A DNA stretch of 50,656 nucleotides, filler included, from Sphacelaria rigidula (taxonomy: Eukaryota): assembly GCA_964200075.2 (NCBI GenBank). It is 3 parts of 3 records of this genome, joined end to end, with 100 filler letters (N's around TTAATTAATTAA, not from the genome) between each part and the next. Parts side by side here need not be neighbours in the genome. Positions count along the whole stretch, not along the records: positions 1 to 16,824 come from CAXNAA020001246.1; 2 more parts are not named here. The stretch is one strand, 5' to 3'. The notes below the pieces were generated by a model. The model was not told the origin of the DNA and did not search any database. It saw only the letters and a list, made by a program, of their open reading frames with translations. A program made the position numbers and the translations under genes. Positions 8,301-47,719 of the stretch are shown piece after piece; the stretch's first letter is position 1; each line of letters starts with the position of its first letter.

Positions 8301-11300
8301 GTCACGGTGAAGTACCCTGCGGTGTTTGTGAGTCAAGCCCTTTAACTGCCGCTGAAATCGGTGCACACTTGGTGATCTCAGCCGATGTGACGCACCCAGC
8401 TACGGGTGACGAGGGAGGTAACGCTGCACCATGATTATTGGAGTACGACTTGTCGAACTGTTTAGGCTCCGAGGGATAGTTCACAAGATCGTCGAGTGCG
8501 GGTAAGATGGCAGGTGGGATTTGATCTTGTCGCGGACACTGAGGTTATGAGTTTTTAGCTTCTGCATGACCACCGGGATTAATCAAGTCTACTTTCTTTT
8601 CTGGGGTTTTCGCCAATATCATTTGTACATGAAATTTTTTGTTGAATCTGGCGTCGAAGACCTCCAAGTCATCAGCGCTGTTTGAATATGTGAGTGTGTG
8701 TGACGTCATGTTGTTTTCCAATACTGTTCCGAAATGTTGCCAACGAGGCCGTCGGGGGTGGGAAATTCCCGGTTGCATTTCAATGGTGCGCCGTCATGCC
8801 CGCATATGTGTAGTGCAAGCACCTCCCTGTCGACATAATATTCCACTCCCGACTCGCAGCCCCCCGCTCCTCATGTTGAAAGGAGCAATTGCATTTTCTT
8901 CACGTGGAAGCCAAGAGCTGCGTTCGAATACCATGCCATTATAGTGGGCCACAAATACAAGAACAGAAGAAATTGACGCGTTGGGGAGGTCGGGGTAGCT
9001 TTTGCCCTCCTCTCCCGGCAAAAACAGAAGAGCTCACCCATTTGCCGCCAGTATACAAAAAGGCTCACCATGGGGTGAAGAAGGGTCCCCGGGCACCACG
9101 CCGATAAAGCGCAGCTCTCCCCGATGTACAAAATTCCGATGTTTTGTTGGGTGGTGCCGACTTTCTTCTTTTGGTTGTTGCTTGCCGCTTGCTGCGCCGC
9201 CACTAACGCGTTGCGTTTCGTTTCGTTCTTTTCGTTTTTTGCTCTCTGCTTCAGCAACCGCCCGCCAGGGTGGTGGGGTTCAAGGTGGAGCCTTTTTCCG
9301 TCAGACACACGCACACGTCGCCTGGCGCGAAGTGGGCAGGGGGTGAATCCCCTTTACCTCCCTTGGATACGTGCGACGACACCGACCCCGTCTCTCCCGT
9401 CAAGATGCCCAAGGTATAGAGATGGCCTAGGCTCACCATGCACACGCCACTTTTGATATGGTTTTTGTTTTGTGTGGGCCAAGGCCTGTAGAATTGACGA
9501 TGGTGGGCTGGGGCGCGTGTGACGGAGTTAGACTGTGCAGGTTGACTATGATTAGCCTGGGCGTGTCGTGTATCATATCCATTAGGGTGCGCACAGTATC
9601 GGTGTTATAAGGGGGCCAGACTTTGCTTCCGAGAGGCGTTGTGCTGACGGCCATGTCTCTGTGTGGATCTCTTACCTCATGCAAGTTTTTTTTTGTTAAC
9701 GCCTCTTGACTGCGTACCTGAAGGTATCAGTTTTTCATGTACGGTATCGTGGTAATTGCGAAAGGTGGACCGGATTACATGTTGTTCATTGTTTGAAGCA
9801 TGTGCACGAAACACTGTTGAATGGTCGTCGCGTTTATTTTCTTGGTATTTGTTAGTTTTTTCTATGCCGATGTTTATAAGAGGCTTTGCCTCTTGTCAGT
9901 CATTCTTACTTGAATTCATACAGGAGTGGTCCTGAAATACATTACGTTATGCCTGACTTCACGGTGCTACCGTCTTGCTCGCTTGTCTTCCTGTTTTTTT
10001 TTTCTTGTGAATGTAATCGTGTGCGTACGCTCTTCTATGCTGGTCCAACGACTGGCGTAGTCTCTGGCGGAGGCACAAGCGGTGGCTCTGGGGGAAACCA
10101 TTCTGTTCACGTACGATGTATCGTGGGTGCCGTCTGACACTCACTGGGCTAGCCGCTGGGATATTTACCTCACCATGAACAAGGCCGTGAAGAACAGGGT
10201 GAGTAGTGCTGCACTCGAGGTAGACACTTCGCCCTCACTGTCGGTATAGAGTGTTGAGTGAAACAAGAAGTAGTGTATAATGGTGTACCGTAACACACAG
10301 TTACTCATGCCTGGATGGAATTTATTATGGTGAGCGCGTTATCTTCTTGGCTCGGAAGATGAACAACCTGCCTGTATGTAGTTAATCTTGAGAAAGTGAC
10401 AAGTCGTGACCCAGGAAATAAGGCCGATCCAAATCGATGGCCCGGTACGGTATGCAGCGTACAGCGTACTCATTCTGAGCCTTTTAGTTTTCGTCAACGA
10501 AACAAAACATGTTTCTTTGTTTTTCGTTCTCAGTGAAGTTGTGTCACCTGTGGTCATGTTGATTCGTATATCTCGAATAAGAAAATGCGTCTGCTGCATG
10601 TACATGAAAATGAATCGAAGTTAATGCATTTACCGCAAGAATTACACAATTCTTCTTTTTTTCTTTTCGCTCTCTCTGCCCTTGTCCGCCACCCTCGTTC
10701 TTTTTTTTTTCGTTTGTTATCCTCCTGTATTTATGATGGAATGGGGGACGATGCACGGGGTGGGTGTATGCATGACTGGATGCACAGGTGCACTGGTTCT
10801 CCATCGTGAACTCTTTGTTGATCGTGCTGTTCCTAACGGCCATGATCGCGATGATTCTCATCCGCAACCTTCACCGCGACATCATGCGCTACAACCGCGT
10901 CCCCACGGACGAGGAAAAGGCGGAGGAGCGCGAAGAGACGGGATGGAAGGTGAATTATTATGGTTTGTGTGGTGGCGCAGACAATGGATTTTTTTATCGT
11001 TCTGACTTCGTTTGTCGCACTTTAACTGACCACCAATGGGTCTAGAAAAGAAGTACAGCCAAAATATAACATGATGACTAGCAGTGCCTTGGCTACGCGC
11101 TTTTCCCGCGATCTGGCTTGCACTGAGGCAAGAAACAATGTACTCGGATTAACCTTCGGCGCAACCGGATGGGTTTCCGTTCAATAGATGGACTTTATTT
11201 TTGGACGTACGTGAGAAGGGTACTGGCTGCTCCACCATCACGGCGCTTCGCACTTAGTGATCGTGAGCCTGGTCCAGTGAAGACGTACTTCGGGTCGGCT

Positions 11301-14300
11301 TTGTGGGGATGCGAAGTCAATTACCCCCATTACACCAATGGAAGATCATGAGTACACACCGCTCCCCTTGTGATGAACCCGTAGAATGGGGGAATCACCC
11401 CACCTTTCGATTTATTTGAGTATGAGGCATTGGATCAGCACTGCCGCCGCGCGTGCACGTTCTCCTGTATCAGTTCTTACGTCCTGAGTCATGTTGTTGC
11501 TGGTGATCATATCATCTTGGTGCTGCTGCTGCGGATCTGGGCTGTTTGGGCGGTCGTCCCATTGTCTTTGCACTTACATGCAGAGCTGTTTTTTTCGTAA
11601 ACTTTTTCGACGTGTCGTTCGTGCGCTGTTCTACCTGCTGAACATATATTGCTGCTGCTGCTGCTGCTGCTACTACCGCTGCTATGACCCCTTCTCCTGA
11701 AATCGTACGGACGGATGGATGGATCCAGCTTGTCCACGCGGATGTCTTCCGGCCTCCGGCTAGGTATCCGATGCTGTTTTGTGTGCTTGTGGGCACCGGA
11801 GTTCAGCTATTATGTATGGGTCTAGTCACCATCGCCTTCGCGGCAATCGGGTAAGTGTAATCCATTTTTTATCGTGGGCAGTTAGTTGTGTGTGTGCGTG
11901 GTTTACTTTACGCTGTAGAAGGTCGACCACCTCTTGGCCCAGTAAACAACGAGTTTCGGCAGCTCTTCTCCTTTGACAGCTACGAGACTGACCCATCCCT
12001 TGCTTAGCCGTGACGCTACCAGTTGTGCGCCGGGCCATGACATGGGTCAGTGAGTGAGTCCCCTATGATGCCACAATCTTCTCTCCTATTCAGCTGTGAG
12101 GCACAATTCTACAAACATCGTATCGTTTAAAGTTTTGACGGTCTGAGGGGACCATCCGCCCGGCATGACGCGTTGCGGCTCGGTTGCTGCAGCGTTTCCT
12201 CTGTCTTGCTTTCGTTTTGCGTACACGTGTGCAGTAGCTGTTGCGGTACCTTCAAGTGAAAACTAGGGGATGGTTTTGCCATGCAATTGAAGACAGAAAT
12301 TTGTTTCAGCCTGATGTTTGTTCACTTGCACAAGACAATCCAGCGCATCAAGAGAGGGTGTGTTCTTGTTGGTGTGTCGAGGAGGCGTTTTTATCCCTTC
12401 TTCTTTGCCTCTCAAGCATAGAAAGAAGAAACCACGGCGTCTTATAAAGACCTCTTGCGTCATCACTATTCCGCTCTTGTCTGACGGGGAAGACTGTTGG
12501 CTCTTTTTCCCAGTGTTTCTATGCGTGCAAGGACCTTTATTTGCTGAAACAAGGCGAAGCGCGTTTAATTTCCGAGGTTGGGTTTCTTCGACGTCGTGGA
12601 GGTGACACGGATGAAAATGGGCGATGTCCCGCGACGCTTCCAGAGGGCCAATCGCCGACAGCTTGTGTTTCAATCATCACGATATACAAAACCAACTGGT
12701 TTACACGTATGGATTTTCTCGAGAGTAAAAGTGCGGCTGAAAAGTGCGTCCCGTTTCTGTGTGTACTATCGGTGTATCATTTGAGGCTATCGTTCCGTTC
12801 CGCCCCAACACGCTTGTATGCTGGCAATACTTTACAGTTAGGAGAATACTCGAGCTTGCAAATGTTGGAGAATCGCATGTTATCATATCTTGTTTCGGAA
12901 AACAAAAATAGGCCAAAAAAACTCGGGCATAATTATCGTTTGATTGAATTTTAGTGAGAACGCAAATTATCGCGAAGTTTCTGGCTCAAAATTTTGGTTT
13001 GCGTAACTATCTTGTATAGATGTGTGCGTGTAGGGTAAAGGACGTGCATCCGCATTTCTCTCACTGAGGATGGTGGAGGTTCCAATTTTTTAGAGATTGG
13101 TGGCACATGCGTGGGGTACAGGGATGGACAGGAGTAGCCAAACTGGTGGGCTATTTTTACTGCATTTTAGGGTCAGCTGCTGGAACTTGCGGTGTACCTT
13201 CTCTGGTCGAAGTCACTTCCTTGCCGTGAGAGCGAGCAAGTGTAGGTAACGAAGAGTGGGATAGCAGTCGATCGTGTGATGTCAGCAAGCGTCTTGTGTT
13301 CGCCTCATGAATTTGTGCGAAAACGCCGGCGTGTGATAACTGGCGAGCTGGTCCGTGGCACGAGTCCGTGAGTGAGTCCCCTATGATGCCACAATCTTCT
13401 CTCCTATTCAGCTGTGAGGCACAATTCTACAAACATCGTATCGTTTAAAGTTTTGACGGTCTGAGGGGACCATCCGCCCGGGATGACGCGTTGCGGCTCG
13501 GTAGATACTGTGCTGAGGGGGGGGGCAGAGGAGGTTCAAGCTGAAGTTTGGTAGCGTAGCGTGCGATATCCTTCGCTTGATTTAATTTTTCGCGCGTGTG
13601 AGTTTGTGTATGACTCATGCCGCTTCTTCGCTAAACGTAGAAGACCATGATTGTTCAATTTTTTTTAACGAATCACGAGAAAATATCCCGGCCGGTTGGT
13701 TCGCATTGCATAGAATGGATCAGCGTGCCAACTGTTGTCAGCGCAACAACAGTCAGTACATAGCATAGAAACACGGAGTAGGGTTACTTCTGCACGTTCT
13801 ATTACGACCCCAAGGTCTTCATGTGCCACACCCCTTCTCTACGTTTACTCCTCCCGGCCCCCACCATCACCTGGGCTACTCTTGGTTGCTTTTGCTGTTG
13901 CGGTGATTTGCACCGCTTTTGGCTTCAGGTTCGTCAACCCTTCCAACCGCGGCAGTCTTGCGGTGTCAATGCTGCTTCTCTACGTACTCATGGGGGTGCC
14001 GGCGGGCTACACGAGCTCTGTGCTGTACAAGTCTTTCAAGGGGAGGCAGTGGCAGCAGTGCACCTTGCTGACGGCGCTGTTGTTCCCGTCCTTGTGCTTC
14101 ACAGTTTTCTTGCTGCTCAATCTCATGTCGAGGAGATATCACTCGACACAGGTGAGGAGAAGGAAGAAGGGGGAAACGAGTCCGGGAGAAGAAAAAAGTC
14201 GGACATTTTTCATCACACGAAAGCCACATGCTGCAGCTGTCGTGAATAGCTTTATTTCTTTTTGGTTTCATGGGGAATAACTGAATATTGGTGGCTTTTA

Positions 14301-16102
14301 GTCAGGCATATACTGAATCATCGTTTTGGTATTTTTCCCTTCGTGGGAATCCTGATTTTGCGACCAACATGCCAACCAAACATCTATGCTTGGCCCTCTT
14401 TGTGCTCGGTTTGTGCCTGAACCCTTCTTACAGGCTGTACCTTTCGTTGAGCTCCTGGAGGTTTTAGCGTTGTGGTTCTGCATCAGCGTGCCCATGGTAT
14501 TCCTCGGCGCATACTTTGGGTACCGTAAGCCAGTCGAACCTTACCCGGTGGTTACATCCAACATCCCGCGCCAGGTGTGTGTGTCTCCGTCTGCGTCTGT
14601 GTTTGTGTCTATGTCTGCCTCTGTGTCTACAGTTTCACCTAGATTGTGCATAATGATCGTAATAATCTTGGCCAGAGAGCGTTCCTAGAGATGTTGTATG
14701 CTTCTCCTTCCCGTGATATCTCCGGTAATTGCGGTGGTTTCCCAGCCGATCCGGGCATAACCGAGCCGAGCTATTGTTTCTTCGATGTTTGGATGTGTGA
14801 CACATTCTGATGTCAAAGCACATCTGTTGCTATGATCGAGAGCGGTCGGTTGGCGTTGGTCTTTATCTCTTGATTTTCACGCATGCCTTGATACCCTTCC
14901 TCGGAACAAGTCCGTCGTCTGACGGACGAGAATAGTCCGTCTCTCCCCCGCTTGTTGCCTTGTGAGCTTGTTTTCGAACGTTTGGTTCAGAACTGACGCA
15001 GCCCGCCGACTTCACTTCGTGGACTTCTTTTCTGTTTCTTGTTACAAGTCACGTTCCGTTTTTGTCGGTAAGGTGTGGTCGAACGTTTCACCGACTCGGT
15101 CGTGCGCAGCAAACGTACGCTGCAGCCTTCCTTTGGCCCTCCTTCTTTCCTGCCTTGTAGACAACAACCAAAACAAAACGAAAGAAGGGAGGAAGGAGAG
15201 AAAAAAAAATGTCTTTTTGTTGGCAGATGGGTAATTTTCTCATGGAGTTGTGTTCTATATCACTGCGGGAAAGGGAGAGTTTTCGACGTATGATGGGAAA
15301 AAGAAGTAATTGCGATGACAACGGCATCATGTAGTTCTACGCCCAGCATGCACTGTGATTTCGCTACCGTTGTTGCAGATTCCGGACCAGCCGTGGTTCC
15401 TGTGGAGCTGCTTCACGATTGCTGTCGGCGGCATCCTTCCCTACGGAGCTGTGTTCATCGAGATGTTCTTTATCCTGCAGTCCCTGTGGATGGGCAGCTA
15501 CTACTACGTGTTCGGGTTCTTGTTGTTGGTCTTCATCATCTTAATTGTCACCTGCGCCGACATCGCGATGGTGTTCTGTTACTTCCAGCTCTGCGCTGAA
15601 GACTACCACTGGTGAGACTGAGGAAGGCGATAGAAGGAGGTACCGTGCACACTTGCCAGTTTGGGTATTTATTTCAACACCATAAACAGGAGACGATGTA
15701 ATGGTTAATTCTTTTTTTTTCGCCATTTTGCTAGAGAGGAGAGTTACTCTCAGACGTTTCACGGCAAGAAGGGATGGAGATGTCCTTCTGCCTGTGCCTG
15801 TTCCTCACCAATAATCCTCGTCACCTCATCTCACGTCATGTCTTCGATTCCCCGCTTCCCTCGCCTGTCTTCCTGTCCCATGTAGGTGGTGGCGCTCATT
15901 CCTGACGACCGGGTCTACCGGCGCGTGGGTGTTTGCCTACTCCACTGTGTACTTTGCCAACCTCCAGGCGACGAAGTTCGCCACCTACGTGTTGTACTTC
16001 GGCTACATGGCGCTGCTGTCACTTGGACTATCGTTGCTAACTGGCTGCATCGGCTTCTACTCATGCCTGTGGTTTACACGGAAGATCTACGGCTCCATCA
16101 AG
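5373..16102 (+). CDS. TM9SF: Transmembrane 9 superfamily (nonaspanin/EMP70, TM9SF2/4-like) protein; 11 exons found, 5' exon(s) and terminal micro-exon not located
   Basis: Phase-consistent exons: 5373-5496, 6976-7107 (GC donor), 7915-8043, 9255-9413, 10061-10198, 10788-10949, 11729-11850, 13929-14151, 14434-14574, 15379-15611, 15886-16102 (~593 codons). Family motifs: SENLGEFLTGDRIESSPY, NWIIDNLP, GFPVG, RVVGFKVEPFSV, WASRWDIYL, VHWFSIVNSLLIVLFL, EETGWKLVHADVFRPP, NPSNRGSL, TSNIPRQIP, GGILPYGAVFIEMFFI, CAEDYHWWWRSF, RKIYGSIK. Confidence 0.95.
12058..12152 (+). ncRNA. Candidate intronic box C/D snoRNA, copy 1 (possible U6 2'-O-methylation guide)
   Basis: Terminal stem GTCCCC (12058-12063)/GGGGAC (12147-12152). 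Box C-like ATGATG at 12065-12070 and box D CTGA at 12143-12146, in K-turn spacing. AATCTTCTCT (12075-12084) is complementary to U6 AGAGAAGAUU. Same strand as the host, in TM9SF intron 11851-13928. Confidence 0.65.
13376..13470 (+). ncRNA. Candidate intronic box C/D snoRNA, copy 2 (identical core)
   Basis: Identical to 12058-12152, 1318 nt downstream in the same intron; ATGATG at 13383, CTGA at 13461. Confidence 0.65.
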
Positions 16103-16773: not shown

Positions 16774-16815
<42 letters not shown>

Positions 16816-16824
16816 CCCCCCTCG

Positions 16825-16924
16825 NNNNNNNNNNNNNNNNNNNNNNNNNNNNNNNNNNNNNNNNNNNNTTAATTAATTAANNNNNNNNNNNNNNNNNNNN
16901 NNNNNNNNNNNNNNNNNNNNNNNN
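16825..16924. other. Assembly gap with artificial TTAATTAATTAA spacer
   Basis: 44 N + TTAATTAATTAA + 44 N, preceded by a long poly-C run. Confidence 0.95.
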
Positions 16925-17303: not shown

Positions 17304-20300
17304 GGTTCCTTCTTCCGTATGGTGGCGTTCGCCGGCGAGCGCGTACTGGAGCTCGAAGCACCCATCCGTAACGAGGGCACCAAATCAACGCTCGCAGTCT
17401 GGGGACGCACTCAGGAGGAGGTGGAGGCGGGAAGGCGCAGCCTGGAGCCGGCCATGGTGCGCGATTGCTTCGAGTATCTCTTCTCCAAGGTGACCGCAGG
17501 AACGCAGGAGAGAGAGGAGGATGTACTTCCGGCATTCTTTTTGGCCAACCTGTCATCCGCAGTTGATTGGGCCGTATTTTATCGAAACATATTTTACGAA
17601 AAAAAAAATGCGCGGCGGAAAAAAAAGTTCGGTCTGATGGGTCAGGATAGGTCATCCATCTATGTCCGCGTCATTTTTTTTCTTCAATGCCGACCGAGCA
17701 GATCGTTTTGTTTTTTCACCGCATATTTTCGATCGAAAAATAATTTGGAACAACACCATTCCAGCGAGAGAGTCCACGCCGTTTTCATACTCATTTGTCA
17801 GCGAAAACACTATATTGAAACTGTGGGCATCGACCCCGCGCTTTCTGCTCGGCTGGTTAGGTTGTTGCATGCTGTTTGGAAGTGACGTGAGGAAACGATA
17901 TCTTGGACTAAAGACTCCACTGCAAGAAAGTGTACTGGGTACAGTATCGACTGGTGCGTCCATTGCAATAGAGAAAAGATTTCATACTGGGCACAAAAAC
18001 ATTTTTTGACGATGGAATCTATTGCCAAGGGTGTGGAGAAAACGCCTGGTGACGAAATGAACGCTTGAGGAACGTGAAGGGGAAAGCGGAAGGCGCGGCA
18101 GCACCGCCTTGACATCGTCGGCGATTACAAAAAATAGCATCGAATCATGCGCTTTCTCCTCTTCCCGTCCTCATATACAAGATAATTAGTACGCTTTTGG
18201 TTGAGCAATCTTGCCAGGATGCAGCTCGCCCGTCATGCGACTCGCCGAACACATGGCGGCGCTTCCGCGCTTGTAGGTTGCTGGCTTGGTCGGGCGAAAA
18301 CCCGGCGTGCTCCGTGCCGGCTTTGTAGGGATGCGAAGTCAGTGGTCTCATAACTATGGCATGCAATATCACGAGTACACCCTCTCCCTATGGGGGAAAT
18401 ATGGTGATGTAGATTTTACCCATGAGCCGAGGTTTCGCCGATTACCCCTACAGTATACCGTGATTTTGATGTTGGAATGATTCGTCTAGAAATTACCTGA
18501 TTTTAGAGTGATTGATAAGTACCGTACGAATAAATCATTGGGCTTTGTTTTCAGCGCTGCAACTCAAGCACGCACAGCCCAGGCACGTGGAATGGCGCAA
18601 AAATTGCGTGGAAACCTTTTTGACCTGCGATCGACTTTTTTTCTCTCTTTCGAGCAACCCGGCCTGAAATACCGCGGATTCGGTGATTCCAACCGGCGAT
18701 GATGCGTCCGAACCGTGAATTTATCCGTACCTGTTCTATTTTCATCACAGAGTATAATCAGAGGACGGATGTTGATACTCCAGCTACTCGTCAGATACCC
18801 GATATCGTCGGGGGGTCGGTACTCTAGATACTGGAGAATATCCAGTATTTTCGGCTGTCGATACTCTTGGAGTAATCAGTAAATGCTCAGTACTTGCGAT
18901 GGATTAAAACTCCAAGTGCTCTCATTTTTTTTTTTTTTCGGCGGTCGATACTCCATCCAGGTACTCTGGACTCATGTAAATACTGAAAATATTTGGAACT
19001 CTAGAATTCTCAAAGTACCGCGCTCCATCTCAAGCACTGTTGATATCGTGTACTCTATCAAGCAGATGGATGGGCTAGGGTACACATACTCGAATCCCGT
19101 GTTGCCACCGCTGCGGTCTCTTGAGGTCAGGGCGAGCGAGTGTCGTGTCTTCCTTGACGAGAAATAATACCGAGCACCAACCGTAAACATCCCCTTTCCC
19201 CCTTCTCCAACTCGCATGACGTACTTTTCCCGTGCCGCGAAAACCACAAACACGCCGGATACAGACGGACGAGATCCACGTTGATATCCTCAACGCGCAT
19301 CTCCAGATCGTCACGCCGTTCCTCAAGCAACACGGCGTGGAGTATGAACGCGATCGCTTCACCGAAAAGCTCGACGCCGGCGATCTGTCGCTCGACATGA
19401 CCCACCTCTGGCTCCACCGCGCCATCCGCAACCTACGCATCGCCGCGGCTACTCCCACCCCGGCCGCTCCCGCTGCTTCACCCCAGAAGAACGGGTCGCC
19501 TCCTCCGCCGGAGCACCCGATCACCGCAACAGCAGAAGTGCTGTTCTACCGCCAGCTGCTGACGGACCTCGAGCACAAACGGGGGGATGCCTACCTCAAG
19601 CTTTTGCGCGTGGCGATCGTCGACAATCTGTTGGGCGCTATTGTCCGCGTGGAGCGCAAGATCGATCCAGCTCCCGGCAGCGGCGGCGCCGCTGCCGCCG
19701 CAGGGGGGGGATCCAAGAGTGATTCTCTGTCTCCTGGATCTCCTGCGTCACCGCCGAGGGACGATCAGCAGGAAGATATGTTGGAAGGGGTGGCTGTGCC
19801 CGAGACCTTGATGTTGGATCAGTACCGACTGGTCGTTGTGGCGGCGGGGGCGGAGCAGGCGGCGTACACGGCATCTCTGGTGGCGTTTTCGCGGCAGGCG
19901 CTGGCGGCGGCGCAGGTGGCGCTCGTTCGGGCGGACGAGGACAAAGTGCGAGACTCGCTGATGGTGCTGTTTGAGACGGAGGATGTGACTAGCGCGGACA
20001 TCACGGCTCAGGTTATGATCGCTATTCGCTCGCGTGTTTTTTTTTCTTTTCCAGAGGGCGCGCTGTTTGTCATGTAGTACGGGCATGTTTGAGTCCGAAC
20101 AAGAAGTTGTTGCGTACCCCAGTGGTGCGGCTGGATTGATGTTTGAGGTGTTTTCTAGTTTGTCGTTTTGTCATAATTGTCAGATGATCACACAGAAGCT
20201 GATGTTACCATCTCCTCTTTGAAATGAGACCACACGTTAGACAACTCATGAGGTAACACCCGGCCGGAATGTGCACCGCTGAGATATCGTTTATAACTCA

Positions 20301-23258
20301 CCTGGCCAGATTTTGCAGTGTTGAGTTATGGTTCATAACTCACCCGGCCAGAATGGGCACCGCTGAATGCTCCTTCTTTAACTTACCTGTCCAGATTCTG
20401 CACCGCTGAGCTATAGTTTATAACTCACCCGGCCGCAATGAGCACCGCTGATTGATGCTGCTAAAACTCACCCGGCCACAATGGGCACCACTGAGTGATC
20501 TTTCTTATGACTCACTGGTGACTTATTGGGGAATGATTTCAGAATGACAACTCACCCGACCAAAAACACGCAGAGAACAGTGGGCGGCACTAGTCCCTCA
20601 CTCAAGAGGAAACGCGTGATCACGTGACACGTCTGCTGCTTCACGTCGCGTGAGAAGCCTCGGAGTATATACGCATATATCAATGCTGCCGTAGTTGTAG
20701 TATGAACACCTGTACATGATACGAGGAGTATAAAATACCAACATAAGACCATTTCTCACGGTTTGTTTCCTGGGGGGGGAAAGCGGTGTTTTTCATGTGC
20801 CGTAGCACCGCTGGAGTCCGTGGTGGGTGCCATAGTCGAAGATCGTATCGTGTGTGTCGCATGCAAGGCGACTCTCCATGATCGTCGTGCACGCGCCAAG
20901 CGTGTGGGTGTGGAAGGGGGGGTGTCGCACAAACTGAGGAATGAAAGCGAGTGCTGTAGCCGTGTTATGAGTTGACCCTTTGACCGCGAGGGTAGGTCAC
21001 CCGCTGAATCGGCATCAATTTTGACTTGAAAAATATATGCATGGTCCAGATGGACTGCCCTCGCGATCTAGGGATTAAGGGATAAAGATGAGTTATCTCA
21101 GAACTCCGAACAAAAAACTGAGTGACATGGCTATGTTACATGAGTTTGGGGGTAACGGTGAGCTATCTCGAACTCAGAACACATCACTGAGCTCCACATT
21201 AATATTTTTGTTCTTTGATTTTTATGCTAGAATTTACCCGGCCAGAATGTGCACCGCTGATTTCTCTTCTTTAACTCACCTGGCCAAGATATGCATCGAT
21301 GAATAATCTTCTCTTACTCACCCGGCCAGAATGTGCACCGCTAAGTTATAGTTCACAACTCACCTGACCAAGATATGCATCGATGAACTATAAGCTATGA
21401 CTCATTCGACCAGAATGGGCACGGCTGAGTGATGCTTTAGATCACTGGTGAGTTGACGCGAAGGAGAGTAAACTCGTGTTAACCTGAGTTGATTTGTCCG
21501 ACGTGTGCATGTTTGTCATACGGTAGGTATGCCTTTTACGCCTGCGGCGGTCAGTGTGTTTGTCCCCTTCTCTGTCCCACGGACCCATATTTAGTTCCTG
21601 CTCGGTCTTCTTTCTGTAGCGAGAAACAGAGTTGCTTAACCAACCACAGCCGTTGATTAACTGTCGTTGTCCTTAGGAACTCGAAGTCAAACGTGGTCTG
21701 ACTTGTGAGTACACTTGCTCTGATCAGCTCAACTTTTAGTCGTTAGACCGAACGATTCTTCACCCGGATGTCTGGCTTGGCGACGACTCGAACAACCGAA
21801 GTCTTGAACCCTGAGTTGGACCACAAGCCTTTGTGAAAGACTCCATTAGTCTCTACCCCGCAGTGTTGATTGCCGAAGAGGAAGGATGGTGAAGATCAGG
21901 TCACAGGGGTGGGGTCTAAAATCTAGGAATAATGACTCGGACAGACGTGTTTACCACAAGCTATCCCTCGTCAACCATATCTGATCCTGTGCGTTTTCGA
22001 ACCTTCGCACGCGCACCAATTATCCGCACCACAAACAGAATTCTGTCAAAGTTGAAGCTCTGATGTATCATCTGTACTCAGCGTATCTTTCATTCACCAC
22101 ATATCCAACAGCAACCACTACCATATCGTACGTCATCGATCCTATGTTCAACAGTGATATTAACCAACACCTTCTCATGTATCCAACGTAGGGTCCCCAT
22201 CAGTTTCACGTGTAAATATGTCAATACGCTTGCTCTCACTTGTGAATAAAGAGTACGAGATCTATTTCAGTTGAATAATGACTAAGCAAGAATATACTTC
22301 ATGACACCACAATCACATCACATTTTTACCGCCATGATTCCATCATATGCCAGGTCGGAGAAATGGCACGTGTGATCGCCATCAACGCTGGGAGGGCGCT
22401 GCCGTCTTCGCACCTCTCTATACTCTGCGCGCGCGCGAAGAACGTGCTAACCACGGGCGAGTGCCCCGTATACAAGCTATTCCTGCGCCGAACGATGGCC
22501 CTCCTGAGAGACACGCTGGTCGAGGGGGGCATGCCGGAGGCCCGCTTCGAGGGCGTGCTACGCAAGGTGAGCAGGGTTGGGAAGGATGGAGAATAAATAG
22601 GGAGGGCGAAAGGAGATGCCTCGGGTCGGGTGCAACCGGATCGCGTGTGTTGCTCGTTTTGTTGCCGTACATATTGTACACTCACATGAAGATCAACGAT
22701 GAAAGTAGTCAAAACGGAGCGAAGCAACGAAGCAGACGCCTGTGATGAACAAGGAAAATCAAAATCAATACGAAGAAGAAATGAACAGGATGTCAGATGT
22801 CTCAACAGTTGGTTTTTGATGTTGGGAAAGAATGATGCATGCAATTGAACTTTCGTGTAACGGTTTATATCGTACGCTAGCTACGGTACGCGGTTGCAGC
22901 TGCTTCCGCTCACAGATGGCGACGTGTCGCGGTTGGCAGTGAGACACACAAGAAGTAAGTGAATGTTTGTATACCATTGTTTGTCTTTGAGGTTTCACCA
23001 TCTCCGTTGTGTCGAGTTCGCCTCGTGGGAAGCTCGTGCTTTCGATCGCCCCTTCTGAAAAAATGTTGTCAATGTGGTCCTCTGTTCTCCGCTACACGGA
23101 AATCGAAGGTCATGTGACTCTTGAGCATGTACGAGGGAGTCTTCCGCTATCATACTCGAAATATGTTCCGAGATTCCACGGTTGTCACCACAAGACTGGT
23201 AGGCTGGCTGCCTCTGCACGCGCATGACGTACGTTACAAACGAACCCGGTCAAAAGTT

Positions 23259-45508: not shown

Positions 45509-47719
45509 CCCTCACACTTTGAACCCCTCCCCTTCCTCGGGATGAGTCCGTGGTCTCAAGGGATCAAGCCATCTCTCTCCCAGTGTGTTGTAAAACGATA
45601 ATGACCTTACTTGCGTGGTAACTGATGCACAGCGTCGATGGATAGCTACAAGGCCAAACCTCCTTTCGTGTACTACTGTCTGTACAGCGTTAGGATTTTG
45701 ACTTACACAGGGGATTGAAGGTTGAAAACACAGCTTTACCGTGCCGCAGGCAGTCCTTGATATTACAACGTCTTGGGCACGAGACTCCTTTCTCCGTGTA
45801 CCTGTTGAGTCTGATAGCGTCACATGTGCTTTTTTTTCATGCGTTTCGAGGGATGCGATAGATATGCGACATCGTTGTGATGGGTGCAACGGGACATACT
45901 GTTTCTCATGGAGCGCCATGCAGTCAGTCTTGAATCTGAGAGTCTCCTCTGCAACCTCCCCGACGTTTTTGCTGCAAATGATTATATACCGTAACAGACA
46001 TGCAGCACGTGGCAGCTCGTCAAGTAGGGGGGTGGGAGGGGGCAGGGGTGAAAGAAGAGGGGTGGAAGGAGGCTCTGGAAGGGCACCAGGTGGGGGCGAT
46101 GCCGGTAGGGGTTCGAGCAGAAACGCGGATTTCGGCAGCGGCTCCGGAAATTCTCCCAGGAAAAGAAGACGCCCTGGAAGCCCCACTAGTCCGTTAAACC
46201 AAGCGACGACGGTGCGTGGTGTTTGCTGCGCTGTACTAGATATTGCGAAGTATTGAGAGTTGAACCTTACTTCGCCCGGCGCAGTGAATCTTGCTGTTGT
46301 ACCATTGATAGCATACATCAGGTATCAATAAGATAATTCCCTGTTGATGGTTGTTGAAAACACTATGAGGTTGGCGTCACTTACTCCGTTTACCGTCTAC
46401 TCGTCTAACATCAGACTATAGGTAAGGTGGTGCAGGAGCTGTAGGACTTGTTTTTTCTCGATATTTTCCGCCGTCTTGAATGATTTTGTTTGATGAATGA
46501 TGACACGTGTTGGGCGTTTTTCGTCGCAAAATGTGAGGGGTGAAAAAAAGTATTTAGAACGTTTATCGTGTGATACCACCGGAGACTCAAACCCAGGGAG
46601 GTAATATGTTGGCCCAGCCGCATGTTTTGGGTCCTGCCCCGACTGGATACGTTGCGGCCGCTGTATGTACTTCCTCAACAGTCTTGCCCTACACAGTTTA
46701 CCACTATCGTGCCCTCAGTCGTATGTATTCTGAGTCCGTGAGCGCCATGCCTGGGGGTTGGAGATAGTCTACACATACGTAGGAAACGGAGTGGATTATG
46801 TTGCATGCGAAACACGGTATTTAAATGCGCCATTTCTCTCCACGAGTCGTTGTTCGTGGATGATGGTGCTCTTCGGCTTGAATAAACCATCAAATCGCAT
46901 TGGTCCCGATATATCGATCCTGAACGAATGAGCGAGTGCGCAGGTTGCTCATGGCTAGTTTTATGCGTTCGAAATGGACGTTGTTGGTTTGACTCTCCAC
47001 GTTCGCGGCTTGACGTCATAATTCATATTGCCAACAGCGGAAAGGGTCGCCAGGGTCGCAAGATACATTAGGAAGCTCAGCGGATAGCTCTAGTGCCGTG
47101 AGGGAGATGGTTTGGTCGTACGGCTTCCCGCTTGCCAGGTGAAGTACCACCAGGCAGCGTAAACCTTGAGATATTCATTTTTGAAATCCGGCACTATGTC
47201 AACAAGAGTGAGTCATTTCATCAACGGCTCTAAGGATGAGCAGTAAGCCTTTTTTCAACTCGATATCATTGCCACGTTACGCTCTTCCTGTACTCACCCA
47301 TCAGCTACTCCCCGCTGTGGGTCGACTCTGGTGTGCGTACAGAAGAAGTATGTGCAGAACATGCCACCAGGCTGCCGATACTACAGGTACCCCTAGTCTG
47401 TGAATGGCGTGTTGTTTTTTGGCGTAAAGTACCCAATATCATGTTTCGAAATCCAACCGAACAAAGCAAGATACTACTCTTATCATGTACCTCTTTGGTG
47501 TCTTCGGTGTCGTGCCATGGCCTTCCCCCGTTTCCCCTGTTTTGGTGTCTGTTCCGTTCATTGTTGGTTAGGGTTTTGCACGCCCACGACCTAGTGGGAG
47601 ATAGCGTGGAGGACATGTTGGTGTTGCTCACGTCTGATGCCTTCCAGCCGCCAGAACCCTCTCATCAGGATGGTAGTCAAGGGGCTGCCGCAGCTCCTCC
47701 CTTCAGCGATGGCGTGTGA
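42536..47719 (+). CDS. OTU-domain deubiquitinase, OTUD5/plant OTLD1-like, with UIM-like and C-terminal UBA-like motifs; start exon not found
   Basis: Phase-consistent exons: 42536-42679, 43004-43279, 44184-44393, 45165-45373, 45998-46211, 47038-47138, 47572-47719 (TGA), ~433 aa. Catalytic Cys loop GDGNCLFRAISQQIYGD, HGNNPEMQAASELFNRPIEVY, His loop PIRVSYHGRSHYNAVIDP, then IGQGLGVPG, ATEEELEQAAITASLAE (UIM-like), SPRKRRR (NLS-like), VREMVWSYGFPLARVLHAHDLVGDSVEDML (UBA-like). Confidence 0.92.
44547..44637 (+). other. tRNA-like / SINE-head-like relic in an OTU gene intron
   Basis: GCCGCGG then TGGTGTAA (A-box-like), T-arm TGAGG-GTTCGAA-CCTTG (B-box GGTTCGAACC), then a T11 run. The acceptor stem does not close. 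Confidence 0.35.
45459..45506. repeat. (GT)n microsatellite
   Basis: Perfect run in an OTU gene intron. Confidence 0.95.

Follow-up and report, generated by a model that had tools for sequence, protein, structure and literature searches.

A predicted pair of U6-directed box C/D snoRNAs in a TM9SF intron of the brown alga Sphacelaria rigidula

Background

A single intron of a TM9SF/EMP70 gene in the brown alga Sphacelaria rigidula contains two nearly identical 135-nt units, which raises the question of whether they are a pair of box C/D snoRNA genes acting on U6 or a non-functional duplicate. U6, the spliceosome's catalytic RNA, carries beside its ACAGAGA box a methylation that animals, fungi and plants share, and guides for the position equivalent to A47 have been described in human and S. 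pombe (PMC5855946, PMC10484740), in Drosophila (PMC3884663), in N. crassa, where CD11 uses its D' element (PMC2780460), and in Arabidopsis, where U27-2 uses box D (PMC2685112). Among the papers listed by a literature search, none was found to describe snoRNA guides for the U6 ACAGAGA site in brown algae or other stramenopiles; the word "snoRNA" does not occur in the Phaeoexplorer preprint, and no U6 guide appeared in a diatom small-RNA paper.

The window analyzed is the whole stretch of 50,656 nucleotides, filler included. Our best explanation, with a probability of about three in four, is that the locus is a U6-directed box C/D snoRNA pair, as predicted from its sequence. If real, it would extend a guide for the U6 ACAGAGA site to a distant multicellular lineage, and it would constitute an unannotated pair of non-coding genes of a sort that would otherwise escape genome annotation.

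Results

Both units lie within one spliced intron

The intron and its neighboring exons are as follows.

11729..11850, + strand: upstream TM9SF exon, 5' edge approximate (joints 10947->11727 and 11849->13928; open reading frame ...LVTIAFAAIG)
11851..13928, + strand: host intron of the TM9SF/EMP70 gene, 2078 nt, GT..AG, containing both snoRNA copies
13929..14151, + strand: downstream TM9SF exon, 3' edge approximate (joints 11849->13928 and 14147->14430; translation FVNPSNRGSLAV...)

The preliminary description had placed the units within a TM9SF gene, and this location is confirmed. A spliced RNA contig from run X6 joins 11849 to 13928, skipping 2078 nt with GT..AG ends (GT at 11851-52, AG at 13927-28) and spanning both copies, and the reading frame runs AIG|FVNPSNRG across the joint. 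The host protein was assigned to the TM9SF/EMP70 family through its PF02990 homologues, and the TM9SF exon tested is 100% identical to a Sphacelaria rigidula protein. Four sequencing runs were examined, all as contigs; the X6 contigs cover the intron thinly and the snoRNA stretches little or not at all, and are uninformative on small RNA. The motif GTGAGT at 12050 and 13368 was considered as a used 5' splice site and rejected, since the splice seen in the RNA contig skips over it and its bases belong to the external stem described below.

The unit is present in two copies and its core is maintained

Direct comparison of 12050-12184 with 13368-13502 (offset +1318) bears out the earlier claim of two 135-bp units with one mismatch outside the core and diverging flanks. 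They are identical at 134/135 nt, the sole mismatch (12164 C, 13482 G) lying 12 nt 3' of the core, and the 95-nt cores are identical. Upstream of both units a weaker similarity extends to 12029/13347 (14/21 identical), and sequence further out cannot be aligned; on the 3' side, similarity ends abruptly after 12184/13502. A 22-mer comprising box C and the guide has exactly two occurrences in the window when up to three mismatches are allowed, and none in 100 shuffles.

Contig depth, which is not an exact copy number, is consistent with two genomic copies and speaks against a dispersed repeat: the collapsed 114-nt repeat contig had a depth of 54 in run X1, where its neighbors had 26-29, and of 53.4 in run X4 (neighbors 22-41). 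At approximately twice the neighboring depth in both runs, these values agree with the two-copy status proposed earlier, and the many dispersed genomic copies expected of a transposon fragment were not found. Genuinely dispersed repeats in this stretch are spread over dozens of contigs, at depths of hundreds to tens of thousands. High-copy repeats also occur inside the host intron, at 12892-12960.

Run X4 derives from a diverged strain. Outside the copies, its intron differs by 23 substitutions and three indels in 1808 bases; inside both copies there are no changes in 270 bases, where approximately 3.9 would be expected (Poisson P ~ 0.02). The core has thus been maintained while the flanks diverged.

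Each unit has box C/D architecture within a predicted external stem

The elements of the two copies are listed below; U6 positions follow the numbering of L019, one of the 11 U6 genes introduced in the next section.

12027..12056, + strand: copy A, 5' arm of the external stem (-27.8 kcal/mol with the 3' arm)
12058..12152, + strand: copy A, predicted box C/D snoRNA core, 95 nt (sequence, folding and architecture scan; weak Rfam alignments put its ends at 12058/59 and 12151/53)
12058..12063, + strand: copy A, 5' strand of the terminal stem, GTCCCC, pairing with 12147-12152
12065..12071, + strand: copy A, box C, ATGATGC (6/7 to RUGAUGA)
12075..12084, + strand: copy A, 5' (D') antisense element AATCTTCTCT, with 10 perfect pairs to U6 AGAGAAGAUU
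12085..12088, + strand: copy A, putative degenerate D' box, CCTA (a sequence reading only; not CNGA/NTGA)
12095..12101, + strand: copy A, putative C' box, GTGAGGC (on the same basis)
12120..12142, + strand: copy A, 3' (D) antisense element, 23 nt, abutting box D, with 20 pairs to U6 nt 20-40
12143..12146, + strand: copy A, box D, CTGA (sequence, architecture scan)
12147..12152, + strand: copy A, 3' strand of the terminal stem, GGGGAC (sequence, folding)
12153..12187, + strand: copy A, 3' arm of the external stem (folding)
13347..13374, + strand: copy B, 5' arm of the external stem, diverged from copy A (-27.4 kcal/mol with the 3' arm)
13376..13470, + strand: copy B, predicted box C/D snoRNA core, 95 nt, identical to copy A (sequence comparison, architecture scan)
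13383..13389, + strand: copy B, box C
13393..13402, + strand: copy B, D' antisense element
13438..13460, + strand: copy B, D antisense element
13461..13464, + strand: copy B, box D
13471..13502, + strand: copy B, 3' arm of the external stem (folding)

Every structural statement made earlier about the 95-nt core, namely its 6-bp terminal stem, 3-nt bulge and GA/GA kink-turn, held on inspection. The GUCCCC/GGGGAC stem, separated from box C by T 12064 in copy A, leads into a 3-nt bulge (U-A-U) followed by G.A, A.G, U.U and G-C, and boxes C and D are spaced 71 nt apart. A home-made scan for box C/D architectures with a stem of at least 6 bp returned four loci in the window, the duplicate copies among them counting as one independent event, whereas 200 first-order Markov simulations averaged 0.35; such architectures are approximately 10 times commoner in the window than in the simulations. 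The internal boxes offer degenerate candidates only, all off consensus: CCUA or CUAU as D', and GUGAGGC as C', within a possible C' region of TGTGAGG/GTGAGGC at 12094-12101 of copy A. Divergent C'/D' motifs can function (PMC3116282).

The external stems keep their energies in both copies despite the differing 5' arms. As background, -28 kcal/mol or lower was reached in 45 of 7007 placements and -24 or lower in 141 of 7007. The folding energy of the whole unit is no better than that of shuffled sequences (z = +0.36, +0.43 and -0.55), which is the usual situation for C/D snoRNAs and neutral either way.

The D' element is antisense to the ACAGAGA region of U6 genes from other eukaryotes

Complementarity was assessed on 11 U6 genes verified with Rfam RF00026, which come from unknown eukaryotes, contaminants in MAGs, and are not the U6 of S. 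rigidula. The D' element AATCTTCTCT forms 10 perfect pairs with U6 AGAGAAGAUU at -12.4 kcal/mol in 11/11 of these genes, although the pattern with which they were fetched included AACGATAC and AGAGAAGATT, and both matches are therefore in the set by construction. The 10-mer following box C is accordingly antisense to U6 in every gene tested, as the preliminary description had it. Taken alone, such a 10-mer is at chance level, with seven antisense-U6 10-mers in the window versus 9.4 expected. An unrelated one lies at 21304-21314. With CCUA as the D' box, the A47 equivalent falls at the fifth paired position, and with CUAU it is G46 instead; we infer the A47 register, because the D' box is degenerate and no consensus box fixes it.

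U6atac was considered as a target and dismissed, as brown algae are reported to be without a minor spliceosome (bioRxiv 10.1101/2024.02.19.579948). A search of the window with the 11 U6 genes (blastn-short) found no U6 gene or pseudogene, with nothing below E 0.2.

The D element is predicted to pair with the adjoining part of U6

Against U6 gene L019, picked after the fact as the best of the 11, the D element forms 20 pairs at -22.7 kcal/mol with a target just 5' of ACAGAGA. Counted upstream from CUGA, pairing sets in at the second base and gives 11 bp and then 9 bp, with an internal loop and three G.U pairs. None of 3000 shuffles of the element reached this energy (mean -8.5, sd 2.6, best -20.7 kcal/mol). 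Among 100,716 23-mers from both strands of the window, it ranks first against U6 nt 18-40, where the 23-mers average -5.7 (sd 2.2) and the runner-up among unrelated sites scores -17.0. This range was used because ranking against nt 1-40 was swamped by GC-rich pairs with the hairpin at the U6 5' end. When the D region was extended to 41 nt, energies across the 11 U6 genes ranged from -12.7 to -24.5 kcal/mol, with only -15.1 for the animal-type L007.

In cofolding, 12075-84 pairs with U6 41-50, and 12120-28 plus 12131-41 pair with U6 20-40. Since the D target lies immediately 5' of the D' target, the two arms as modeled cover one continuous U6 segment of ~31 nt, their targets abutting without a gap. 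The bipartite pairing suggested earlier is thus recovered at a larger scale than proposed, for the 8-mer on which it was based, GTATCGTT (12120-27), is the 5' end of the 23-nt element. Cofolding further indicates possible pairing of nearly the whole RNA with U6 nt 4-55, the exception being a 35-nt insert in the C'/D' region.

Searches for family membership and homologues

Rfam yielded no match for the whole window at gathering score or for 11900-13700 at E <= 10, and the 121-nt core gave generic sub-threshold matches without a family, the best being SNORD23 (15.1 bits vs gathering 64, E 0.51) and snoR53Y (12.4 bits vs gathering 43, E 9.2). The likeness to SNORD7 drawn previously therefore stands as a functional one, and not as membership in the family. 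In metagenome, genome and viral contig collections, which hold no brown-algal genomes, no homologue outside S. rigidula was found. Metagenome matches to box C with the 10-mer and 8-mer amounted to six chance-like loci, none with box D and a terminal stem; the one with a stem-like flank (L004) was rejected because it lies inside a 394-aa open reading frame. The 20-nt D-arm word had no match in the genome contigs or in the viral contigs, and the U6 motif had none in the viral contigs.

Discussion

If the locus is a U6-directed snoRNA pair, each unit would be expressed and would fold during or after splicing, with the ~30-bp interrupted external stem and the 6-bp terminal stem bringing boxes C and D into the kink-turn. 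Snu13, Nop58, Nop56 and fibrillarin would assemble on this kink-turn, and the flanks would be trimmed or cut. Both guide arms would recognize U6 snRNA, the alga's own U6 presumably carrying the complementary segment; the locus would in that case predict the sequence of the variable region of that U6. The D' element would pair with AGAGAAGAUU, which comprises the 3' half of the ACAGAGA box and the bases that follow, and with CCUA as D' box the last A of ACAGAGA (A47, human numbering) would be targeted for 2'-O-methylation. The D element would pair with the U6 bases immediately 5' of this target, where it might, by "extra base-pairing", clamp a guide duplex that at 10 bp is minimal, or direct a second methylation, at the U opposite the fifth base upstream of box D (~position 25, human numbering). 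A real pair would thus provide a clean case for weighing a long second antisense arm as a clamp versus a second guide.

Three other explanations were weighed. The units could be a non-functional intron duplicate, whether a transposon fragment, the relic of a retroposed snoRNA or what is left of an antisense U6 pseudogene. High-copy repeats do lie nearby in the intron (12892-12960) and an antisense U6 copy would likewise pair with U6 nt 4-55, but the contig depth fits two copies and not many, identity is 134/135 in the units vs 14/21 in the homologous flank, and the diverged strain is without changes in the copies. The exact kink-turn geometry, the placement of antisense blocks at guide-arm positions with one abutting box D, and the external stems kept in both copies via different sequences also argue against such a relic, which we consider quite improbable.

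U3 and U14 act as chaperones on pre-rRNA, and the product could be a U6-binding box C/D RNP that serves mainly as a chaperone or clamp, holding 31-33 U6 nt open in maturation with no guiding of methylation. We know of no U6 chaperone snoRNA, box D is perfect and lies at the canonical distance from the end of the D arm, and the D' register with CCUA as the box agrees with a methylation that animals, fungi and plants share; these points make a pure chaperone more improbable still, even with the unusually long contiguous complementarity across both arms, the degenerate D' box, and the lack of any reported 2'-O-methyl 5' of A47/A41 in human and S. pombe U6 (PMC5855946, PMC10484740). Least probable of the three is a genuine box C/D snoRNA for rRNA or another RNA whose complementarity to U6 is incidental. 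The chance-level frequency of antisense-U6 10-mers in the window would allow it, as would the N. crassa D' guide CD11, which has been assigned to both 18S and U6 (PMC2780460). It would, however, take a very unlikely double chance for two arms to match neighboring parts of a single 31-nt U6 stretch, the second arm being the window-wide best match to it.

Read as a U6-directed guide pair, the locus belongs to the same box C/D class and addresses the same U6 stretch as mgU6-47/SNORD7 (vertebrates, Drosophila), snoZ30 (S. pombe), CD11 and U27-2, and the same methylation site as well if CCUA is D'. SNORD7 and snoZ30 are likened here by target and not by their guide sequences. The predicted RNAs are intron-encoded, as are many mgU6-47-type guides, but resemble no Rfam snoRNA family detectably, either in sequence or by covariance model; they also differ in their degenerate D' box, in a second arm on the adjoining U6 target, and in occurring as two copies in one intron. 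A separate family, mgU2-19/30 (SCARNA9), targets U2, which is transcribed by Pol II and modified in Cajal bodies; it resembles the present prediction as a double guide, one C/D RNA for two nearby sites in one spliceosomal snRNA (PMC2685112, PMC2780460). CD11 resembles it in having the guide after box C and using D' (PMC2780460), whereas U27-2 uses box D for the A47 site (PMC2685112). In Arabidopsis, snoR126 likewise is one box C/D snoRNA with both arms predicted on a single U6 molecule, its dual antisense elements addressing the neighboring sites Gm75 and Gm84 (PMC2685112); these lie in the 3' part of U6, whereas the targets here abut and run from the 5' stem-loop to just past ACAGAGA. Two paralogues in one intron are also known from Arabidopsis, as snoR123a/b (PMC2685112).

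The clamp option has its closest counterpart in the "extra base-pairing" of the yeast and human snoRNAs snR75, snR76, snR70 and others (van Nues et al. 2011, PMC3116282), which was found in snoRNAs with the shortest guides. Correspondingly, cofolding pairs 12120-12141 immediately 5' of the U6 bases bound by 12075-84. The published cases have an rRNA substrate and mostly short blocks (down to 4 bp) (PMC3116282), in contrast to the U6 substrate and the 20-pair extra block in canonical D-guide position predicted here.

In its fullest form, the proposal would have one box C/D RNP grip ~31-33 nt of U6, beginning at the foot of the 5' stem-loop and continuing through ACAGAGA, with both arms, and either add two methyls, one of which would fall on a U ~22 nt 5' of A47, where human and fission-yeast U6 have no reported 2'-O-methylation, or act as a U6 folding clamp, the gene perhaps having arisen from an inverted U6 copy captured in the intron. 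This version is tentative, and we think it unlikely to hold in full. The 3' stem and flank of the snoRNA resemble the U6 5' stem-loop, and together with the antisense relationship of nearly the whole RNA to U6 this resemblance suggests that the gene may have originated from an inverted copy of U6.

Results

Two near-identical units (copy A, 12050-12184; copy B, 13368-13502) most likely encode, within an intron of a TM9SF gene of Sphacelaria rigidula, a box C/D methylation guide directed at U6, and we put the probability that they are functional U6-directed snoRNA genes at roughly three in four. The repeat is exactly as the preliminary description had it: sequence comparison gave 135 nt with a sole mismatch. 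The mismatch is 12164 C/13482 G; similarity decays upstream (14/21 identical, 12029-12049 against 13347-13367) and ends abruptly past 12184/13502. The relevant features are as follows.

11851-13928 (+), host intron of the TM9SF gene, from a splice joint in run X6 together with sequence
12058-12152 (+), 95-nt core of copy A: GUCCCC stem, one U, AUGAUGC box C, 71 nt, CUGA box D, GGGGAC stem
13376-13470 (+), 95-nt core of copy B: same parts
12027-12056 with 12153-12187 (+), predicted external stem of copy A, long and interrupted
13347-13374 with 13471-13502 (+), predicted external stem of copy B, long and interrupted

Core geometry is that of a canonical kink-turn (6-bp stem, 3-nt bulge, G.A, A.G, U.U, G-C), and the kink-turn proposed earlier, with its stem, bulge and G.A/A.G pairs, was recovered in both copies. 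The 22-mer of box C plus guide was located at two places in the window and was absent from all of 100 shuffles. An architecture scan returned 4 loci with a stem of at least 6 bp, compared with a mean of 0.35 and a maximum of 3 in 200 first-order Markov simulations (at least 2 loci in 13/200); copies A and B were counted as one independent event because they are duplicates of each other. Rfam gave no match in the window at gathering score, no match at E<=10 within 1.8 kb around the copies, and only generic matches on a 121-nt core (SNORD23, 15.1 bits against 64; snoR53Y, 12.4 bits against 43). Folding energies of the whole unit were no better than those of shuffles, which is normal for box C/D RNAs.

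The exon at 15379-15612 matches a Sphacelaria rigidula-labelled NCBI protein at 100% identity over 78 aa and proteins of Ectocarpus fasciculatus and Ascophyllum nodosum at 96%; all of these proteins carry Pfam PF02990 (EMP70/TM9SF), and the window is therefore brown-algal and not apicomplexan. Contigs of four sequencing runs were aligned to 10700-14700. A spliced X6 contig has three GT..AG joints, one of which (11849->13928) skips 2078 bases and, taken together with the sequence, defines a single intron. Copy A starts 207 nt inside its 5' end and copy B ends 458 nt short of its 3' end, which confirms the intronic location suggested previously. X6 contigs cover the putative snoRNA stretches thinly or not at all.

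DNA contigs of runs X1, X3 and X4 (the last a diverged strain) are all broken at the repeat. In X1 the 114-nt contig into which the copies collapse (13368-13481) shows a depth of 54, where neighbouring contigs show 26-29; in X4 the figures are 53.4 and 22-41. Contig depth tracks copy number loosely, and these values fit two genomic copies. Hundreds of dispersed copies, the possibility that the preliminary description had raised against its own reading, do not fit them. High-copy dispersed repeats are present in the TM9SF introns (10968-11101, 11236-11369 and 12892-12960), where they appear in all DNA runs as dozens of contigs with many loose ends, whose depths add up to between hundreds and tens of thousands.

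The core is under constraint, based upon three lines of evidence. Core and 3' flank are identical between copies at 134/135 positions, as opposed to 14/21 in the homologous 5' flank and an unalignable remainder. Relative to the window, X4 differs by 23 substitutions and 3 indels over the 1808 bases of the intron that lie outside the copies; the 270 bases inside are unchanged, where ~3.9 differences were expected (Poisson P ~0.02), a count that drops three rows from a multi-copy repeat (12925, 12928, 13004) and in which copy A 12080-12133 is represented by the collapsed contig alone. Lastly, an external stem is predicted for both copies, with flank-to-flank duplex energies of -27.8 kcal/mol (copy A) and -27.4 kcal/mol (copy B) against a background of 7007 placements (mean -12.5, sd 4.8; <=-28 in 45, <=-24 in 141). 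The 5' arms differ in sequence between copies, as do the pairing registers, and the variant base 13482 G in the 3' arm of copy B is predicted to pair with 13366 C. Two snoRNAs within one intron presumably could not both be optimally spaced from the branch point; such long stems may plausibly serve as an assembly aid or an RNase III-type cut site.

U6 genes were fetched by a short motif from a prokaryote genome collection. Rfam RF00026 identifies all 15 loci, found in MAG records, as U6 (59-118 bits), and they are evidently eukaryotic contaminants; four of them (L007, L008, L012, L016) lie in bacterial-MAG contigs, several with flanking tRNA genes, and the eukaryotic contamination of these bins is evident. 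Pairing tests used 11 of the 15, leaving out two incomplete genes (L011, L018) and two duplicates of L010 (L020, L021). All 10 bases of the D' arm (12075-84) pair perfectly with AGAGAAGAUU in 11/11 genes, by construction, since the fetch motif contained that word. The window contains 7 antisense-U6 10-mers, among them an unrelated one at 21304, where 9.4 would be expected. Thus the U6-antisense 10-mer noted previously does pair perfectly with the fetched genes, is at chance level alone, and by itself means little for U6 targeting.

In the D arm, the 8-mer GTATCGTT of the preliminary description is just the start of a 23-mer (12120-12142) that ends adjoining box D and pairs with U6 between the 5' stem-loop and ACAGAGA, so that the proposed second U6 stretch and bipartite pairing were borne out at greater length. 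Its duplex with L019, the reference for U6 numbering, consists of 20 pairs, three being G.U, with a 2x1 internal loop between the first 9 bp and the other 11 bp. The energy is -22.7 kcal/mol, a value reached by 0/3000 shuffles (mean -8.5, sd 2.6, best -20.7); L019 was chosen post hoc among the three best of 11 genes, and multiplying by 11 for this choice still leaves the shuffle result <0.004. Among 100,716 23-mers from both window strands, scored against U6 nt 18-40 (mean -5.7, sd 2.2), the D arm ranks first, and the next unrelated site has -17.0. For the longer 41-nt D region, best energies were -24.5 (L019, L013, L017) and, with other genes, -20.3, -19.1, -17.4, -17.0, -15.1 (animal-type L007), down to -12.7 (L012); the targeted part of U6 varies among lineages, and the energies, obtained with foreign U6, may differ for the alga's own.

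When core and L019 were cofolded, 12075-84 paired with U6 41-50, and 12120-28 plus 12131-41 with U6 20-40, covering a single unbroken 31-nt U6 stretch while 35 nt with the putative D'/C' looped out at the junction. Boxes and 3' stem paired with U6 as well, and were left out of the count because they would be blocked in a snoRNP. At 12147-12160 and 13465-13478, 3' stem strand and flank (GGGGACCATCCGCC) have a same-sense likeness to the U6 5' stem-loop, namely to its 3' strand and the next bases (GGGGAUCAUCCGUU, L019). An antisense alignment to U6 nt 4-55 can thus be drawn for nearly the whole snoRNA, leaving out the 35-nt insert in its middle. The likeness may be a coincidence of GC-rich stems, or it may be the trace of an origin from an inverted U6 copy.

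Discussion

If CCUA (12085-88) is read as D', the last A of ACAGAGA (A47, human numbering) would occupy the fifth pair upstream of it, and the mgU6-47 register claimed in the preliminary description would hold. The alternative CUAU would place G46 in the methylation register. Since neither candidate fits any D' consensus, the box is degenerate and A47 is a predicted site. Box D of the D arm is perfect and canonically spaced, and the fifth base of the arm (12138) would pair with a U that precedes A47 by ~22 nt (position 25, human numbering). Because no 2'-O-methyl 5' of A47/A41 is reported for human and S. pombe U6 (PMC5855946; PMC10484740), this arm may act as a long "extra base-pairing" clamp that assists a minimal 10-bp guide, of the kind shown for rRNA guides (PMC3116282), or as the guide for a methylation site not known elsewhere; we consider the two about equally likely. 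U6atac was rejected as a target; brown algae are reported to be devoid of minor-spliceosome genes and U12 introns (bioRxiv 10.1101/2024.02.19.579948).

The A47 equivalent is methylated under snoRNA guidance in human and S. pombe (PMC5855946; PMC10484740) and Drosophila (PMC3884663), guided by CD11 via D' in N. crassa (PMC2780460), and guided as U6 Am42 by U27-2 in Arabidopsis (PMC2685112). The Sphacelaria pair is the predicted functional counterpart of mgU6-47/SNORD7, snoZ30, CD11 and U27-2, would share D' use with CD11, and has no demonstrable membership in any described snoRNA sequence family. In Arabidopsis (PMC2685112), snoR126 (Gm75, Gm84) is a predicted precedent for engaging U6 by both arms, and snoR123a/b is one for two paralogues in one intron. 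Judged from sequence, contiguous double coverage of the U6 5' half and the degenerate D' would be the variant features of the pair.

No homologue turned up elsewhere: a metagenome scan for a three-part pattern gave 6 loci, all chance-like, and the D-arm word had 0 matches in prokaryote and viral collections. Brown-algal genomes are in none of the collections scanned, so this does not imply absence. In the main-text passages that our literature search covered, U6-directed snoRNAs are not described for brown algae or other stramenopiles; Ectocarpus snoRNA predictions are mentioned in PMC4513859. The lineage is poorly charted, and we regard the two copies as a sound pair of unannotated non-coding genes, one feature of which is unusual and readily testable.

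Other elements in the window

Box C/D-like loci, the main pair included, occur at ~10x the simulation level. The additional candidates are as follows.

35734-35823 (-), probable further box C/D snoRNA: 7-bp stem CAGTGAG/CTCACTG, box C ATGATGC, box D CTGA
46860-46923 (+), further box C/D-like locus from the architecture scan: ATGATGG...CTGA, 8-bp stem including wobbles
25126-25217 (+), weaker box C/D-like locus
36727-36655 (-), weaker box C/D-like locus

The first has an internal CTGA 20 nt past box C, and in Rfam it drew a sub-threshold SNORD123 match alone (13.1 bits against 45, E 6.2). Between the copies, in the same intron (+), lie a 12-mer antisense to AAAAAUUGGAAC (13079-13090; blastn-short E 0.23) and a 9-mer antisense to GGAACGAUA (12788-12796), each at chance level singly and with no boxes adjoining. 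Arrays of a 42-nt tandem repeat occupy 20253-20506 and 21231-21440, and the repeat unit with TAATCTTCTCT (21304-21314), an 11-mer antisense to U6, illustrates how easily such words arise by chance. N runs around TTAATTAATTAA mark the joins between records (16825-16924 and 33743-33842), and long poly-C/poly-G runs are found at 16776-16824 and 24443-24667. A large inverted repeat at 27665-28329, with 139-nt arms that are 92% complementary and 387 nt apart and with internal direct repeats, looks like a foldback or MITE-type element.
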